Sequence record: NC_054894.1
Direction: 5' to 3' (one strand)
Length of the DNA stretch: 49,526 nt
From: Escherichia phage Henu7
In this document: positions 9,093-24,282 of the stretch, one piece after another
How the letters are laid out: the number at the start of each line of letters is the position of its first letter
Position numbering within the stretch: position 1 is the stretch's first letter
The notes under the pieces: model-generated
What the model saw: only the letters and a program-made list of their open reading frames with translations
What the model was told of the DNA's origin: nothing
Databases searched by the model: none
Made by a program: the position numbers and the translations under genes

Positions 9093-10211
9093 ATGATTCA
9101 GAAAATGACAGACCAGCAGTTTAAAGACGCACGAGCGGAGGGTAAAACCTACAAGCAGATCGCGGAGGAATTTGGCTTGAATGTTCGCACAGTTGAGCGA
9201 CGAGCGGCAAACCTTGCTCGCAAGGGTGAGACTGACGCGAAAGGCGCTCCAGGTTTTGCGGTTGTTCGCGAGTCAGTCCTTACGCGTGCGAACGGCGAGG
9301 AAGTTATGCGCTGGACTATCACCAACAAGGATAAAGAGCAGTTGGAGGCATTAATGCAAGCCGCTATGGAAGCATTCGCAGAGGAAGTGCCACGCCTTGA
9401 TCCTCAGCCTGAAAGCCGCAAAGACTACAGCGAGAGCCTAGCGCTATACCCAATCTTTGATATGCACATTGGCGCAATGGCTCACAAGCATGAGTGTGGT
9501 GAGAATTGGGATACGGCAACAGCCGAAAATGTCATGAATGACTTCTTTGATTATGCGGTTGAGTGTGCGCCAAATAGCGAGAAAGCCGTGCTCCTGATTG
9601 GTGGAGATATGCTTCACAGTGACGGCCTTGAGGCTGTAACACCTGCCAGCGGTCACGTTCTGGATCAGGATAGCCGCTACGCCAAACTTGTTTATGTCGC
9701 AATCCGAGCAACGCGCCGCGCTATCTCCTTGATGTTGACCAAGCACAAAGAGGTTGAAATTCAGGTGATCGAGGGCAATCATGACCAATCAGGCATGATC
9801 TGGCTACGCGCAGCAATGGCTGCGGCATACGAAAACGAGCCACGAGTTACGGTTGATGTTTCTCCCCGCGTGGTGCATCACACGCAGTACGGAAAAACCT
9901 TCCTCGCGTATCATCACGGTCACACCGTGCGCAAGCCTGAAACGTTATTGATGATGTGTGCGGCAGATTGGCGCGAGGATTTTGGCAAATCAAAATCAAT
10001 GTATGCTCATGTAGGCCATTGGCATCACCAGACCGTAACAGAAACCAGCCTGGGGATTGTTGAAGTTCACAGCACTATGGCGGCTAAAGATGCGTATGCG
10101 GCACGCGGCGGCTGGCGCTCTCGTCGTCGCGCGGCGGTTATCATCTACGACAAAGAGCACGGCGAGATCGGGAGATTTATGTTCTACCCTGAAATGATGG
10201 AGTCAAAATAA
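9093..10211 (+). CDS. HTH domain fused to calcineurin-like metallophosphoesterase
   Basis: N-terminal HTH YKQIAEEFGLNVRTVERR; metallophosphoesterase motifs DMHIG, GGDMLHSDG, GNHD, HHGH, GHWHH; RBS AAGAGGA. Confidence 0.6.
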   Translation: MIQKMTDQQFKDARAEGKTYKQIAEEFGLNVRTVERRAANLARKGETDAKGAPGFAVVRESVLTRANGEEVMRWTITNKDKEQLEALMQAAMEAFAEEVPRLDPQPESRKDYSESLALYPIFDMHIGAMAHKHECGENWDTATAENVMNDFFDYAVECAPNSEKAVLLIGGDMLHSDGLEAVTPASGHVLDQDSRYAKLVYVAIRATRRAISLMLTKHKEVEIQVIEGNHDQSGMIWLRAAMAAAYENEPRVTVDVSPRVVHHTQYGKTFLAYHHGHTVRKPETLLMMCAADWREDFGKSKSMYAHVGHWHHQTVTETSLGIVEVHSTMAAKDAYAARGGWRSRRRAAVIIYDKEHGEIGRFMFYPEMMESK

Positions 10212-18299: not shown

Positions 18300-18306
18300 T
18301 AGGTAA

Positions 18307-18325
18307 ATAGCACTTTTTGTTAAAA
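18307..18325 (+). promoter_or_regulatory. palindromic element plus hairpin plus ATAAT
   Basis: ATAGCACTTTTTGTTAAAA, hairpin TGCCCCGCGCGAGTGGGGCA, ATAAT, leader CTCAACGAAACGAA. Confidence 0.45.
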
Positions 18326-18383
18326 CTGCCCCGCGCGAGTGGGGCATAATAGCCTCAACGAAACGAATTGAGGAGATTGCAAA

Positions 18384-18923: not shown

Positions 18924-19273
18924 TGCAAATCACCGCACAAGCACGCAACTATGCACTCAAGCACGGCGTGCATATCTACGGCCTGACCAATGAGCAGAGC
19001 CGCGCCCTGGTTTTCTACGATATCGACAGCGGCACAAAGCTATGCACATACAAGAGCTACAGCGATGATAACCCATTGCAGAAGTCGCTCAACTACAAGA
19101 TGAAGCCGGAAACCTGGCAAGCGATGCCGGATTATATCCGCACGGCTCAGGGTGTGCAAAAGGCAATCGAGGCGATGGTTGCAACTGGCACGGCGCGACT
19201 GCTGGACGAGGACGAGCTAGCGGAAGCACGCAACAAGATCCTGGCGCGGTCAACGGGAGTTGAGATCCTATGA
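18923..19273 (+). CDS. hypothetical protein
   Basis: ATG overlaps upstream stop (TAATG). Confidence 0.5.
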   Translation: MQITAQARNYALKHGVHIYGLTNEQSRALVFYDIDSGTKLCTYKSYSDDNPLQKSLNYKMKPETWQAMPDYIRTAQGVQKAIEAMVATGTARLLDEDELAEARNKILARSTGVEIL

Positions 19274-19333
19274 GCAGTTGGCACAATGAGCACGTAATGC
19301 AATTCTACCGCCAAAGGATAAAGAAAATCCTCA

Positions 19334-19352
19334 ATAGCACGAATTGCTAAAA
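19334..19352 (+). promoter_or_regulatory. palindromic element plus hairpin containing TATAGT
   Basis: ATAGCACGAATTGCTAAAA, hairpin GGGGTTGCGC-TATAGT-AACCCC, leader ATCGAAACGAAAC. Confidence 0.45.
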
Positions 19353-19413
19353 CACCAGATCGGGGTTGCGCTATAGTAACCCCATCGAAACGAAACACGC
19401 TGAGGAGCACAAA

Positions 19414-19584: not shown

Positions 19585-19827
19585 ATGCTGTCAATTCGAA
19601 ATTGGTTTATGCGCCTCATTGGGAAAGAGGTTGGGGCTTTCGGTTATAACATCCCTGCAAACTTCAAGCGTGCTTGCCCTGGCAACTCCAGCGGGGTTTA
19701 TTGGGAAATGCCAGACGGCACATTCTGGTTCACTGTAATTTCTGGAACGTCAATCCAGGTTAGTGAGCGCGGCTATGAGCGCGGAACGTGGCTTACAGCA
19801 ATGCTGGAAGTAGGGGAGGAATTTTAA
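19585..19827 (+). CDS. hypothetical protein
   Basis: RBS GAGGAGG. Confidence 0.5.
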   Translation: MLSIRNWFMRLIGKEVGAFGYNIPANFKRACPGNSSGVYWEMPDGTFWFTVISGTSIQVSERGYERGTWLTAMLEVGEEF

Positions 19828-20360
19828 TGATCAAGTTTGAGATTTGGGGTTATACATACTATCTGCGCGGCACTTACGGCGTTGCAATCGTTGACCTGGA
19901 CGGCACACTGAGCGACGGTTCGCACCGATTGCACCTGCTACCAACAAAGGACTTGCACCTCACCGAAAGCTGGAGCGAGTTTAACAAGGCGGCTATTGAC
20001 GACAAGCCGATCCAGAGCACGATTGATGTTGTGCGTAACCTTTGGCGTGCTGGGATGGGAGTAGTTATCCTGACTGGTCGCAGTGACGAGGTTGAAACAG
20101 ACACTATCCTTTGGCTAGACCGCCACAAGGTGAAATATGACTGGCTTATCATGCGCCGCGCGGAGGACAACCGCAAGGACACCGTTATCAAAGAGGAAGT
20201 GTTGCGTGCAATCGGCCTGCATCATATTACGTGCGCCTTTGATGATTCGCCAAATGTGATCAACCACTTCCGCAGCCTTGGAATCACAACCTATCAGGTG
20301 ACGGAATACGATAAGCCGCATTCTCATTTACAAAGTCACGGCGTGGAGGAGTTGAAATGA
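19827..20360 (+). CDS. HAD-superfamily phosphatase (nucleotidase or polynucleotide 3'-phosphatase-like)
   Basis: HAD motif I IVDLDGTLSDG; downstream ILTGR and FDDSPN resemble HAD motifs II to IV; start ATG 19827 overlaps upstream stop. Confidence 0.6.
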   Translation: MIKFEIWGYTYYLRGTYGVAIVDLDGTLSDGSHRLHLLPTKDLHLTESWSEFNKAAIDDKPIQSTIDVVRNLWRAGMGVVILTGRSDEVETDTILWLDRHKVKYDWLIMRRAEDNRKDTVIKEEVLRAIGLHHITCAFDDSPNVINHFRSLGITTYQVTEYDKPHSHLQSHGVEELK

Positions 20361-20512
20361 TTAGCGCATGGATTTTGGTATCGATCTCATATTACGGTGG
20401 GTTGCAGCCAATCGAATTTACCAGCCACAGTGCTTGCGTGGAGGCGCTAGAGGTTATCAAAAATAATACTCCTGGTAGCTGGTCTAACACTTATGTTTGC
20501 GTGAAGAAGTAA
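20357..20512 (+). CDS. small hypothetical protein with hydrophobic N-terminus (51 aa)
   Basis: ATG overlaps upstream stop (ATGA); N-terminus ISAWILVSISYYGGL. Confidence 0.4.
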   Translation: MISAWILVSISYYGGLQPIEFTSHSACVEALEVIKNNTPGSWSNTYVCVKK

Positions 20513-20524
20513 AGGGGCTGAGCA

Positions 20525-20740
20525 ATGATTATTTCACACAACGTTGAACCAAGCGCAAACACTGCGCGTGATATGATTGCCGGAATGCCGCCAAAATCTC
20601 ACAGAATTGTACGTGTACGCGGTTATAACTTCAACGTAAGCCAAACACTCAAGGAAATTTTAGCCTTGCCAGAGGTCGATACAGCGCTTGTGGGAGTGCA
20701 TACAAATGAGTATGTTTCTTTCCACATTGTGACGAAATAG
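20525..20740 (+). CDS. hypothetical protein
   Basis: RBS AAAGGGG; stop TAG lies inside the next palindromic element. Confidence 0.5.
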   Translation: MIISHNVEPSANTARDMIAGMPPKSHRIVRVRGYNFNVSQTLKEILALPEVDTALVGVHTNEYVSFHIVTK

Positions 20741-20755
20741 CACGAATTGCTAAAA
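20737..20755 (+). promoter_or_regulatory. palindromic element plus TATAAT
   Basis: ATAGCACGAATTGCTAAAA, GC-rich segment, TATAAT, leader CCAACCAACGAGGAG. Confidence 0.45.
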
Positions 20756-20812
20756 CGCGCTCCGACAGGGGCGCTATAATTCACCCATACCAACCAACGA
20801 GGAGCAATAAAA

Positions 20813-21058
20813 ATGGAACAAGTAAAAGTTAAGCTAATTTCCAACGGTGGCTATAATGGTTTGAAACACCTTTCATTCCCAATTGTAGTTGATGGATTTG
20901 TGCATCCGGTTCTTGGTTACGTTGATGTGACAATGCGCGAGCTTGAGCGAGTCGGTTATGACTTTGAAAAGGGGCAGATCGGAGAAATTGCAGACTGCGC
21001 GAAAGATAGTGACTCTCTTACATTCTTCCAGGGTGGCGAGTGCGAGGTGTTGAAATGA
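20813..21058 (+). CDS. hypothetical protein
   Basis: RBS GAGGAG. Confidence 0.5.
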   Translation: MEQVKVKLISNGGYNGLKHLSFPIVVDGFVHPVLGYVDVTMRELERVGYDFEKGQIGEIADCAKDSDSLTFFQGGECEVLK

Positions 21059-21285
21059 AATTCCAGATCTTCAAAGCTATTGACAAAATCGACGGCGAGC
21101 TTTCACTTTTCATGTTCGACGAGGAAAACAACTACACTGTTATTGACTACTCGCCGGAAATGATTGGGCGCATGATTCGTGATATCAAGGCTGGCGGGGG
21201 CTGCCACTGGAGCGATAGCGCAAACGAAACTCCGCGCCGTGACGACATGCTTGATGCAGTTTTAATGTGTGAGTTTGAAGCATGA
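21055..21285 (+). CDS. hypothetical protein
   Basis: ATG overlaps upstream stop (ATGA). Confidence 0.45.
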   Translation: MKFQIFKAIDKIDGELSLFMFDEENNYTVIDYSPEMIGRMIRDIKAGGGCHWSDSANETPRRDDMLDAVLMCEFEA

Positions 21286-21473
21286 AGTGCATCAGGTCAA
21301 CATACGATCTATTCAAGGCGGGTGAAAGTTACCCGCTAATTGAGAAAGGCCAGGCTGGGCGGTTCACGTTGTACGAATACACAGACGCGAAAGGCTGGGT
21401 TTACACGTTCGGCCTCGACGAGAACGGCGAGAACGAAACAGACGGCAATTTCATTAAATTTACAAAGGAGTAA
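21282..21473 (+). CDS. hypothetical protein
   Basis: ATG overlaps upstream stop (ATGA). Confidence 0.45.
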   Translation: MKCIRSTYDLFKAGESYPLIEKGQAGRFTLYEYTDAKGWVYTFGLDENGENETDGNFIKFTKE

Positions 21474-21477
21474 TAAG

Positions 21478-21708
21478 ATGATTGAGATCAAATTCGATGG
21501 CAACTCTAAGCCATTCAACGGCGTACAGATCCACAAAGATGCAACACACGCGGTAGCGGGTCGCAATTTCGGTACTTACTTTAAACTCAATGGCGAATGG
21601 TATTTCACAGTTTTCACTTGTCACGCGCTGAAAGTGGCGGTTATGTCTCATGACTTTGATATCAGCGATCACATCATGGACGGCGCAGAAATCACAGAGT
21701 TTAAATAG
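21478..21708 (+). CDS. hypothetical protein
   Basis: RBS AAAGGAG; stop TAG lies inside the next palindromic element. Confidence 0.5.
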   Translation: MIEIKFDGNSKPFNGVQIHKDATHAVAGRNFGTYFKLNGEWYFTVFTCHALKVAVMSHDFDISDHIMDGAEITEFK

Positions 21709-21723
21709 CACTTTTTGCTAAAG
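21705..21723 (+). promoter_or_regulatory. palindromic element plus hairpin containing TATAGT (module copy A)
   Basis: ATAGCACTTTTTGCTAAAG, hairpin GAGGCCATTGG-TATAGT-GGCCTC, leader TTGAAAGCAACCAA. Confidence 0.45.
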
Positions 21724-21786
21724 ACTTTCCGCGAGGCCATTGGTATAGTGGCCTCATTGAAAGCAACCAATCAAAAGGAAAACGAA

Positions 21787-22122
21787 ATGAAATTAGTTCG
21801 CAATGCGGTGTATGGCCTGGAAACAAGCGGCGGAATGATCCAGGTTTTTCATGTGGCAAACAACGGACACATTCAGATCGCGATGTATCGTGACGCTCGC
21901 GGCGCTTGCCAGCCTGGTTATAGTGGCGAAGTGCGAATGATGTTCAGCATGATTCAGCGGCAAGCTGATCACATCAATAACCACGATCACTGGATCGAAG
22001 ATCTCAAACGCAAAGGTGTGATGATAGCAAGTCACGTTATAGACCCGATGAAGCTCACCTCTCGCGACTATCGCGAAATGGCGAGAAAGGCAGCAAAGAA
22101 ACTGAATATCACGAATTGCTAA
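21787..22122 (+). CDS. hypothetical protein
   Basis: Start ATG 21787 with RBS AAAGGAAAACGAA; the longer track ORF reads through the regulatory unit. Confidence 0.5.
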   Translation: MKLVRNAVYGLETSGGMIQVFHVANNGHIQIAMYRDARGACQPGYSGEVRMMFSMIQRQADHINNHDHWIEDLKRKGVMIASHVIDPMKLTSRDYREMARKAAKKLNITNC

Positions 22123-22124
22123 AG
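22106..22124 (+). promoter_or_regulatory. palindromic element (degenerate left half) plus hairpin containing TATAGT (module copy B)
   Basis: ATATCACGAATTGCTAAAG followed by a near-identical copy of the 21724..21780 module. Confidence 0.4.
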
Positions 22125-22187
22125 ACTTTCCGCGAGGCCATTGCTATAGTGGCCTCATTGAAAGCAACCACGCAAACAGGAGATAAA

Positions 22188-22346
22188 ATGCGTAACTTTG
22201 AGAAAATCCGCACTAACAAAGACCGCCGCGCTGCTGGTGAGATTGTAGATTCACACCGTCGCCGCAAGAAAACACAAAAGCGCGGGAGTGCGGCAAAGCG
22301 CATGGATTTGGAACAGCTTCAAACTAACTACAAGGTAGGTCGATAA
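22188..22346 (+). CDS. small highly basic protein (52 aa)
   Basis: RBS CAGGAG; Arg/Lys-rich sequence KDRRAAGEIVDSHRRRKKTQKRGSAAKR. Confidence 0.45.
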   Translation: MRNFEKIRTNKDRRAAGEIVDSHRRRKKTQKRGSAAKRMDLEQLQTNYKVGR

Positions 22347-22915
22347 TGAAAAAGGTAATTATTCTCAACGCACCGCCAGGCGCTGGCAAGGACACAATCG
22401 GCAGCCTGATCTGCAAGCACGCTCCGCAATACGTTGTTAAGCGCTCATTCAAAGAGCCAATGTTTAAGATCGCAAAGGCTATGTTGGGCGATTATCGTTT
22501 CGGCCTGTTTATGCAAGCGTATGACGACAGGGGGCAGAAAGAAAGAGCGCAATCGTTCCTGAATGGTAAATCACCTCGCCAGTTTATGATCTGGATTAGC
22601 GAGGACGTGATAAAACCTCAGTTTGGGAATCAGTATTTTGGTTCGGTAATGGCTGAGGCGGTGAGAGATAGCCAAGTGCCAGTTGTCATTACTGACGGAG
22701 GTTTTCCAGATGAAGTTAAGCCACTGGTTAGTGCTGGCATTCAGGTAAACATTTGCCGATTGCACCGCACAGGATATGCGTTTGATGGTGACAGCCGCGA
22801 TTATCTAAACCTGGATGGCTACCATCACCGCATTGTTACGCGAGATTACATTCTTGTGCATGGTGATCCAATGCACACGGTAGACCAGATTTGCGAGGAT
22901 ATATTAAGTGATTAG
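22346..22915 (+). CDS. P-loop nucleotide kinase (dNMP-kinase-like)
   Basis: Walker A NAPPGAGKDT, resembling the GxGKDT P-loop of phage deoxynucleoside-monophosphate kinases (from memory; not confirmed by search); ATG overlaps upstream stop. Confidence 0.55.
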   Translation: MKKVIILNAPPGAGKDTIGSLICKHAPQYVVKRSFKEPMFKIAKAMLGDYRFGLFMQAYDDRGQKERAQSFLNGKSPRQFMIWISEDVIKPQFGNQYFGSVMAEAVRDSQVPVVITDGGFPDEVKPLVSAGIQVNICRLHRTGYAFDGDSRDYLNLDGYHHRIVTRDYILVHGDPMHTVDQICEDILSD

Positions 22916-23011: not shown

Positions 23012-23209
23012 ATGGCTTCTAACACACTAAAGCGAATCGGCGTTATCATGCTAATTATCGGAGGGTCATTGCTAACAGAGCCAGGTTTTGCAAACACGGC
23101 TGGAGGTATGGCGCTGTTAATAGGCGGTCTTATTGGTGGCTACATGGACGGCGTAAAGGCTGGTCGGCGCGAGGCGTTCGGAGGCGAAGATAAAAATCCG
23201 ATCAAATAG
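23012..23209 (+). CDS. small membrane protein (two predicted transmembrane segments)
   Basis: RBS AAGAGG; hydrophobic stretches IGVIMLIIGGSLL and GMALLIGGLIGGYM. Confidence 0.5.
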   Translation: MASNTLKRIGVIMLIIGGSLLTEPGFANTAGGMALLIGGLIGGYMDGVKAGRREAFGGEDKNPIK

Positions 23210-23224
23210 CACGAATTGCTAAAA
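23206..23224 (+). promoter_or_regulatory. palindromic element plus hairpin (module copy C)
   Basis: ATAGCACGAATTGCTAAAA followed by a sequence related to module copies A and B, with TAAAGT. Confidence 0.4.
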
Positions 23225-23290
23225 CTTCCGCGAGGGCATTTGGTAAAGTGTCCTCATTGAAGCAAAGCAACCAATCAAGGAGATAACGAA

Positions 23291-23754: not shown

Positions 23755-24206
23755 AATATTATGTACGCCCTACTGTGGACGGTGAAAACTTTACTGCTGG
23801 CAAGCTCTACGAGATCCAGCGTTGTTTCGGTGGCGGTCGCTTTGTCGTGCTAAACGATGCAAAGGAGGAAATCATTGTGCGGTGCGATGGTATCGCGTCG
23901 GCTCGCCTGAATTGGCGCGGGAGATTTGAGTGTGTGAGCATTCCAAGTGCGCAAGAAGCAGTTGGGTCGGCACAGCAAGCGGCGGCGCAAGCCTTTCGGG
24001 ATATGTGTAAGGGTAGCGGATGGCGCATTGAGAAAGGCGGGGTGTTTATCGCAAGCAGTAGTTTCAAGGCGGCAGATAAAGATCCAAATGTCGAAGTCCT
24101 GGAAAAGCTGCGTGAAATCCTGCGCGTACCGGATGGTGAGAACATCCTGACACATGCGAAAGTTGTGCGCGTGCTGGCTGACGGGTTAATCAACCTCCAA
24201 AAGTAA
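23751..24206 (+). CDS. hypothetical protein
   Basis: ATG 23751 overlaps upstream stop (ATGA). Confidence 0.5.
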   Translation: MKYYVRPTVDGENFTAGKLYEIQRCFGGGRFVVLNDAKEEIIVRCDGIASARLNWRGRFECVSIPSAQEAVGSAQQAAAQAFRDMCKGSGWRIEKGGVFIASSSFKAADKDPNVEVLEKLREILRVPDGENILTHAKVVRVLADGLINLQK

Positions 24207-24207
24207 A

Positions 24208-24226
24208 ATAGCACTTTTTGCTAAAA
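24208..24226 (+). promoter_or_regulatory. palindromic element plus hairpin containing TATAGT
   Basis: ATAGCACTTTTTGCTAAAA, hairpin GGGGTAGGCTGG-TATAGT-TACCCC, leader ATCGAAACGAAAC. Confidence 0.45.
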
Positions 24227-24282
24227 CTCCGATGGGGTAGGCTGGTATAGTTACCCCATCGAAACGAAACGGAGATATCAAA

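Follow-up and report, generated by a model that had tools for sequence, protein, structure and literature searches.

Enzymes related to those encoded by two early genes of Escherichia phage Henu7 (sequence record NC_054894.1), a predicted phosphatase and a predicted kinase, are known from phages T4, T5, and Rao1. In T4, the roles of PseT residues D165 (nucleophile), D167 (general acid/base), S211, K258, and D278 are documented, and the phosphatase domain is active on 3′-dTMP as well as on RNA ends (PMC3592404). In T5, Dmp is a phosphatase of 5′-deoxynucleoside monophosphates (5′-dNMPs) that shields the phage from the Kongming defense system (KomABC) by depleting dAMP (bioRxiv 10.1101/2024.12.20.629578). 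A family of dNMP kinases (DNKs) has been characterized since 2024, when escape mutants of Rao1 from Kongming were mapped to gp58 (bioRxiv 10.1101/2024.12.20.629578). The purified Rao1 enzyme, R1DNK, phosphorylates dAMP, dGMP, and dCMP efficiently and dTMP also; its K15A variant no longer triggers Kongming toxicity, and deletion of gp58 lowers dATP during infection (bioRxiv 10.1101/2024.12.20.629578). The DNKs of phage KarlJaspers and of Klebsiella phage vB_KpnS-VAC2 trigger KomABC toxicity as well (bioRxiv 10.1101/2024.12.20.629578). The dNMP kinase gp1 of T4 accepts neither dAMP nor dCMP, in contrast to the Rao1 enzyme, for which all four dNMPs are substrates. In T1 and TLS, host DNA is degraded and its nucleotides are reused.

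The stretch of Henu7 DNA that we analyzed (hereafter the window, 49.5 kb) is the essentially complete genome of a T1-like siphovirus (Drexlerviridae, Henuseptimavirus-like). Its first 25 kb show ~94% nucleotide identity to Enterobacter phage AS5 and Escherichia phage IsaakIselin, at 87–89% query coverage, both of which are placed in Drexlerviridae, Tempevirinae, Henuseptimavirus; Samwise and IsaakIselin are ~91% identical to the 19–24 kb stretch. The two genes discussed here lie on the plus strand, within a run of small open reading frames (ORFs) that ends at the terminase genes:

19827–20360, plus strand: stand-alone DxDxT (HAD) phosphatase of the PseT/Dmp clade, 177 aa (Pfam HAD_PNKP, phrog_415, residue map)
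22346–22915, plus strand: deoxynucleoside monophosphate kinase of the T4 gp1 fold, ‘DGGF’ subfamily, 189 aa (phrog_139, structure search, residue map)

The initial annotation, made from the DNA alone, had placed a DLDGTL-bearing HAD phosphatase and a GAGKDT-bearing kinase within 3 kb of each other in the early array. Both ORFs and both motifs are borne out, with family matches far beyond a chance motif, and the genes are separated by 1,985 nt with about eight small ORFs between them. Our analysis indicates that they are probably two early genes of one conserved nucleotide-metabolism module with a role in salvage. The genes are nothing new in kind: relatives already carry these names, and a 2026 paper noted the pair in Drexlerviridae, where both genes follow a ‘DNA repair exonuclease’ gene and nucleotide supply was the guessed role.

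The Kinase and Its Tested Relatives

The kinase ORF starts within the stop codon of the ORF upstream (TAATG), and its product reads MKKVIILNAPPGAGKDTIG, with the P-loop G12-A-G-K15-D-T17. It matches phrog_139, ‘deoxynucleoside monophosphate kinase’ (E 1.2e-44), to which T4 gp1 belongs too. A Pfam search gave no match, a sequence search of the PDB returned nothing meaningful, and PADLOC returned noise only. In a structure search, T4 gp1 (PDB 1DEK) was the best structural match, and the GxxGKDT P-loop and the gp1-like two-domain fold are both present. When the kinase family was compared by hhalign with T4 gp1 as a single sequence, the alignment was confined to the 73 N-terminal columns; the comparison with gp1 relies instead on the structure search and on residues mapped with MAFFT. 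The ligand residues of T4 gp1 (PMC10653934) R68, R132, M135, W152, D175, E181, and R197 fall on window residues R62, R78, M81, F98, D117, E123, and R138. In 139 representatives of clusters formed at 50% identity, a nearly invariant signature marks the subfamily: N8, G14-K15-D16, K36, R62, K65, R78, S85-E86, K90, D117-x-G119-F120-x-x-E123, R141, and D149-S150-R151.

The window kinase is 45% identical to Rao1 gp58 (R1DNK) and 54% identical to the DNK of KarlJaspers (QXV82329.1), a phage of the same subfamily, Tempevirinae, as Henu7. The DNK sequences in the supplement of the Kongming study fall in the same DGGF subfamily; for the KarlJaspers DNK, phosphorylation of dNMPs is implied in vivo. Because the tested Rao1 and KarlJaspers orthologs belong to this subfamily, we take the window protein to be, on sequence grounds, a broad-specificity dNMP kinase. 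By homology, it would also be the phage activity that Kongming exploits for its dITP alarm signal, and Henuseptimaviruses are therefore predicted to be Kongming-sensitive.

The Phosphatase and Its Family

The ATG of the phosphatase gene likewise overlaps an upstream stop codon (TAATG), with GGAGGA 8 nt upstream, and its product reads ...VAIVDLDGTLSDG..., in which the DxDxT motif is D23-L-D25-G-T27. Pfam PF25109 (HAD_PNKP) matches it with E 4.8e-21 and 75.8 bits against a cut-off of 27.6, and phrog_415 with E 4.2e-66; sequence matches in the PDB include Pnkp1 (4xrp, E 1.8e-8) and T4 Pnkp (1ltq, E 3e-3). Alignment with T4 PseT, covering T4 residues 148–301, places D165-V-D167-G-T169 on D23-L-D25-G-T27, and further pairs are kept: R176/R34, S211/T83, R213/R85, D254/D118, K258/K122, and D277-D278/D139-D140 (T4 residue first). 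Rao1 gp57 is 58% identical to the window phosphatase.

GenBank relatives of this protein (e.g., at loci L001 3828–4364 and L090 17618–18154) are labeled ‘polynucleotide kinase’ although they hold the phosphatase domain only. That label is wrong for phrog_415 proteins. It is inherited from the name of the PHROG, and the misleading name propagates through Pharokka-type annotation.

Competing assignments to adenylate or other housekeeping kinases and to sugar-phosphatases, which the initial annotation had named as grounds for refuting it, find no footing under curated NCBIfam and Pfam cut-offs. Models of the housekeeping nucleoside monophosphate kinases (adenylate, guanylate, and thymidylate) score at best 11–17 bits on the kinase, far under cut-offs of 155–402, and HAD sugar-phosphatase and other phosphatase models score 12–20 bits on the phosphatase, with cut-offs of 29–264.

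Gene Linkage and Natural Fusions

Of 84 related loci, 75 carry the two genes on one strand, with the phosphatase gene upstream. The gap between the two is ≤12 nt in 20 loci, ~110–490 nt in T1-like genomes, and 0.7–2.2 kb in the group to which the window belongs; evidently, the two genes were once adjacent and were later separated by the insertion of small ORFs. Where the genes abut, a gene encoding a helix-turn-helix (HTH) metallophosphoesterase usually stands directly upstream, as in PeteCarol gp38–40, K1ind3 ORF20–18, and Rao1 gp56–58. In the window, this third member is encoded ~10 kb away:

9093–10211, plus strand: HTH plus calcineurin-like metallophosphoesterase (phrog_704, ‘DNA repair exonuclease’), third module member elsewhere

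The protein is 65% identical to PeteCarol gp38 and 56% identical to Rao1 gp56. A 372-aa neighbor in other phages, of the size of T4 Rnl1, was considered as an RNA ligase and rejected, as it is this HTH-metallophosphoesterase. Homologs 64–65% identical to the window protein are found in phage mEp010 and on E. coli contigs of 165–457 kb; the gene therefore circulates in prophages also.

The phosphatase-kinase cassette was seen in Webervirus, Kagunavirus, Rao1, a Yersinia myovirus, and Autographiviridae. Outside Drexlerviridae, the complete trio occurs in the Yersinia myovirus and in Autographiviridae, in the latter with a metallophosphoesterase of another PHROG and in a position between endonuclease VII and DNA ligase or RNA polymerase genes. 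A fusion search covering 1.84 billion representatives identified two proteins, P0140 (403 aa, locus L091 8001–9212) and P0148 (461 aa, locus L093 498–1883), in which an N-terminal HAD_PNKP domain and a C-terminal DNK domain are joined by a conserved linker (…GPELHG…). These two are 37% identical and come from different metagenomic samples. P0140 is present on three contigs and is followed by the metallophosphoesterase gene, and L091 is a 60.8-kb phage-like contig. Because of the conserved linkage and the natural fusions, there is strong evidence that the phosphatase and the kinase would act together.

In Vequintavirinae such as Salmonella phage SPLA5a (L094 4593–5195), a kinase homolog is also followed, with overlapping codons, by a HAD protein, but one that differs from the window phosphatase. 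That HAD protein belongs to phrog_420 and has a weak, below-cut-off match to NT5C 5′(3′)-deoxyribonucleotidase (E 4e-4). In these phages, genes for thymidylate synthase and ribonucleotide reductase stand near the kinase gene and this nucleotidase-like HAD gene.

Inherited gene order could account for the linkage if the two genes were functionally unrelated and merely neighbors in the crowded early region of a T1-like genome. The 84 loci are mostly from Drexlerviridae, so ancestry could explain a shared order; either gene can be missing; and in the window the two genes, ~2 kb apart with the small ORFs between, stand behind different promoter-like elements. However, adjacency with overlapping start and stop codons recurs in unrelated groups (Kagunavirus, the Yersinia myovirus, and Autographiviridae), the two fusions are diverged from each other, and the metallophosphoesterase is repeatedly associated with the pair, in two PHROGs and two gene orders. 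We therefore regard a chance neighborhood of unrelated genes as quite improbable.

A Probable Role in Nucleotide Salvage

The nucleotide-pool reading is favored because the kinase is assigned as a dNMP kinase, because T1 and TLS reuse host nucleotides, and because the module sits among nuclease, replication, or nucleotide-metabolism genes. The kinase would transfer the γ-phosphate of ATP to dNMPs released by T1-type degradation of the host chromosome, and the resulting deoxynucleoside diphosphates would be converted by host Ndk to the triphosphates (dNTPs) needed for phage DNA synthesis. The phosphatase is expected to act as an acyl-phosphatase, forming an aspartyl-phosphate intermediate on D23 with D25 as general acid/base, and we infer that it most likely strips 3′-phosphates from DNA breakdown products or nucleotides, so that it would work in the same direction as the kinase. 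For the metallophosphoesterase, which usually accompanies the pair, activity as a nuclease or phosphodiesterase is probable. One repeated promoter-like element (see below) has a copy upstream of the phosphatase gene and another upstream of the kinase gene.

In a bolder version, all three enzymes would together make up a dedicated pipeline from host chromosome to phage dNTPs, in which the PseT-like phosphatase, as a 3′-phosphatase of the PNKP family, is physically coupled to the dNMP kinase. We put this forward tentatively, as a possible but doubtful extension of the salvage role. If it were true, a ‘repair’ phosphatase would gain a role in salvage, the enzymes behind T1-type host DNA degradation and nucleotide reuse would be identified, and what Kongming monitors would be revealed. 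In any case, the three-gene linkage across phage families makes the enzymes of T1-type host DNA degradation and reuse testable.

Several observations weigh against the salvage module. We know of no source of 3′-phosphorylated DNA products in T1-type infection. Two ligands of the dNMP phosphate in T4 gp1, K37 and R177, are shifted in the window kinase and align with F40 and G119; the invariant K36 and R151 sit near these positions, and as the active Rao1 enzyme carries the same substitutions, equivalents of the two T4 residues are evidently dispensable. The kinase occurs without the phosphatase in L008, L022, and an L075-type podovirus. The structural model of the metallophosphoesterase is of moderate confidence and its fold matches are generic, with a Mre11/SbcD-like nuclease and a generic phosphodiesterase not separable in the fold search. 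Deletion of dnk in Rao1 carried no measurable fitness cost (bioRxiv 10.1101/2024.12.20.629578), and salvage is therefore dispensable in the laboratory. Finally, a 5′-dNMP phosphatase, T5 Dmp, falls in the same family as the window phosphatase (phrog_415, E 3.6e-57) and has in common with it, and not with T4 PseT, an insertion of ~13 residues after motif I.

Substrate of the Phosphatase

The membership of Dmp in phrog_415 raises an alternative in which the phosphatase is a Dmp-type 5′-deoxynucleotidase that opposes the kinase on dNMP pools. It would then reset the pools early, or it would remove dAMP and dIMP so that the phage’s own kinase does not feed the Kongming dITP alarm, making it an anti-defense gene. 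In Dmp, D22 opens a DLDGT motif that is identical to that of the window phosphatase and, as there, precedes H-R, and when a profile of nine members of the window protein’s family was compared with Dmp by hhalign (probability 88.9%, E 2.4e-6), the post-motif-I insertion aligned gap-free. Homologs of Dmp occur mostly in DNK-carrying phages, and Dmps block DNK-triggered toxicity (bioRxiv 10.1101/2024.12.20.629578). In Vequintavirinae, moreover, a gene for an NT5C-like HAD protein comes after the kinase gene.

Since the phrog_415 match and the insertion are shared with Dmp while the C-terminal half of the window phosphatase (DNRKDTVIKEE...DD) resembles PseT and not Dmp, homology alone is compatible with either 3′ or 5′ specificity. 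Three considerations nevertheless lead us to lean toward a predicted 3′-phosphatase working in the direction of the kinase. The family is nearer to T4 PseT (probability 97.6%, E 3.6e-12 in the same hhalign comparison) than to Dmp, which matches nothing in Pfam, HAD_PNKP included. A fused phosphatase and kinase would be a futile arrangement if two opposed activities were thereby co-expressed. And Rao1, which carries the ortholog gp57 beside its DNK, is fully Kongming-sensitive, with dAMP going up, not down, during infection; these in vivo data argue only against efficient hydrolysis of 5′-dAMP. A Dmp-type enzyme is thus unlikely, and a 3′-phosphatase within the salvage module is the preferred reading.

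End Healing as an Alternative

A kinase next to a 3′-phosphatase can also be read as an end-healing pair, the second of the two readings offered by the initial annotation. In such a split polynucleotide kinase-phosphatase, the HAD protein would heal 2′,3′-cyclic phosphate or 3′-phosphate ends, the gp1-like kinase would phosphorylate 5′-OH polynucleotide ends, and a host ligase would seal the break, the targets being tRNA cleaved by anticodon nucleases or nicked DNA with 3′-P/5′-OH ends. The complete PseT catalytic set of the phosphatase speaks for this, as does the resemblance of the phosphatase-then-kinase order, and of the fusions, to bifunctional PNKP enzymes. An ATP-dependent DNA ligase gene follows the kinase gene in Aeromonas phage Aer_P220 and in L075. 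A homolog of Stp, the T4 peptide by which the PrrC anticodon nuclease is activated, is encoded ~480 nt upstream of the phosphatase gene.

The phosphatase consists of the phosphatase domain only (177 aa), without a P-loop or a Pnk kinase domain. The fold and motifs of the kinase are those of gp1, not of Pnk/AAA_33 kinases, and after strand 2, where Pnk-type kinases have their catalytic Asp (Asp35 in T4; D38 in CthPnk), it has S34-F35-K36. As its orthologs are tested dNMP kinases, the idea that it supplies the missing Pnk half of a split enzyme was rejected as the main reading. No ligase was found: the window had no tblastn match below E 0.3 to T4 Rnl1, to the T4 57B product (annotated as an RNA ligase), or to either of two ATP-dependent DNA ligases from phages, and the PHROG-annotated relative Samwise, roughly 91–94% identical, likewise has no ligase gene among its annotations. 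The initial annotation’s remark that no ligase was recognized nearby can therefore be extended to the whole window and to this relative. The window has no tRNA genes (0). Unless an RNA ligase that joins 3′-OH to 5′-P were present, removal of 2′,3′-cyclic phosphate would keep host RtcB from repairing the break. Nor does the Stp-like peptide track the module, being absent from Webervirus, Kagunavirus, and Rao1, where the module is present, and present in L008, where the phosphatase is missing.

Because there is no ligase and no tRNA gene, because the kinase is unlike Pnk and has demonstrated mononucleotide substrates in its orthologs, and because the Stp-like peptide varies independently of the module, end healing is disfavored, and we consider it highly improbable. 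Of the two original readings, nucleotide-pool metabolism is the favored one, and the initial interpretation is supported in part.

Promoter-Like Repeats and Neighboring ORFs

An intergenic element of 60–100 nt is repeated in the early region. It consists of a core, AATAGCAC-n5-TTGCTAAAA, a spacer, and TATAGT, often with a shared ribosome-binding stretch:

18305–18367, 19332–19394, 21693–21789, 22094–22190, 23204–23266, and 24206–24268, plus strand: copies of the element, as direct repeats
19332–19394, plus strand: promoter-like element (TTGCTA ... TATAGT) heading the unit with the phosphatase gene; family D1, with four copies in 16.5–26.5 kb
22094–22190, plus strand: promoter-like element and ribosome-binding region heading the unit with ORF 22188–22346 and the kinase gene; family D2/D3

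The copy at 22094–22190 is 81% identical to that at 21693–21789. The repeats look like a family of early promoters that split the array into short transcription units, a function suggested by their hexamers only; a generic promoter scan showed no excess over its shuffles.

The Stp homolog is a 26-codon ORF at 19270–19350 (plus strand) that is missing from the annotation of the window and encodes MSSWHNEHVMQFYRQRIKKILNSTNC. Its length is that of T4 Stp, and the two peptides agree at 13 of 26 positions, without interruption over residues 5–14, the region in which loss-of-function mutations of T4 Stp cluster. The ORF is conserved at 16 further T1-like loci, with phage BubbaBully the only one in which it is annotated. 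ORF 22188–22346 (plus strand), whose stop codon overlaps the start codon of the kinase gene, encodes a very basic protein of 52 aa that matches Pfam PF08200 (bacteriophage T7 protein 1.1; E 9.6e-5, 23.2 bits against a cut-off of 21).

Comparison With Known Systems

The bifunctional end-healing enzymes (T4 Pnkp, mammalian PNKP, and Clostridium thermocellum Pnkp) likewise pair a P-loop kinase with a phosphoesterase, sometimes a metallophosphoesterase. The modules of C. thermocellum Pnkp are a kinase, a metallophosphoesterase, and a ligase, and the domain order of P0140 and P0148, phosphatase then kinase, is that of mammalian PNKP. In contrast to these enzymes, the window kinase is of the gp1 type, with mononucleotide substrates in its orthologs, and not of the Pnk type, and neither a ligase module nor a ligase gene was found in the window.

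With the 3′-phosphatase of T4 PseT, the window phosphatase shares the DxDxT acyl-phosphatase motif, all aligned catalytic and phosphate-contacting residues, and the HAD_PNKP domain. It differs from PseT in having no N-terminal Pnk kinase domain, in having no RNA ligase partner in the genome, and in carrying the insertion after motif I. With T5 Dmp it has in common phrog_415, the DLDGT-then-H-R stretch, the insertion, and occurrence in DNK-carrying phages. However, identity to Dmp is ~26% over 94 residues only, Dmp lies outside HAD_PNKP, and the C-terminal half of the window protein is PseT-like.

The window kinase and T4 gp1 share a PHROG, the GKDT P-loop, the D-R-E and LNGKSP motifs, and most acceptor and ATP ligands. 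Conversely, they are only 16% identical, an insert of T4 gp1 (residues about 96–128) is missing from the window kinase, and the window lid is unlike that of T4, with the invariant D149-S150-R151; K36 and the invariant DGGF stand in place of K37 and R177. The nearest counterparts are the DNKs of Rao1 (gp58), KarlJaspers, and VAC2, which share with the window kinase the GxGKDT, SFK, DRExKE, R-x-FMIWISE, DGGF-x-x-E, and GDSR motifs. For Rao1 and KarlJaspers, the likeness extends over the full length of the protein, at the identities given above, and to a T1-like genomic context in which a gene for a PseT-like phosphatase precedes the kinase gene. The three module genes of Rao1 form an uninterrupted block ahead of the lysis genes, whereas in Henu7 the same three genes are dispersed.

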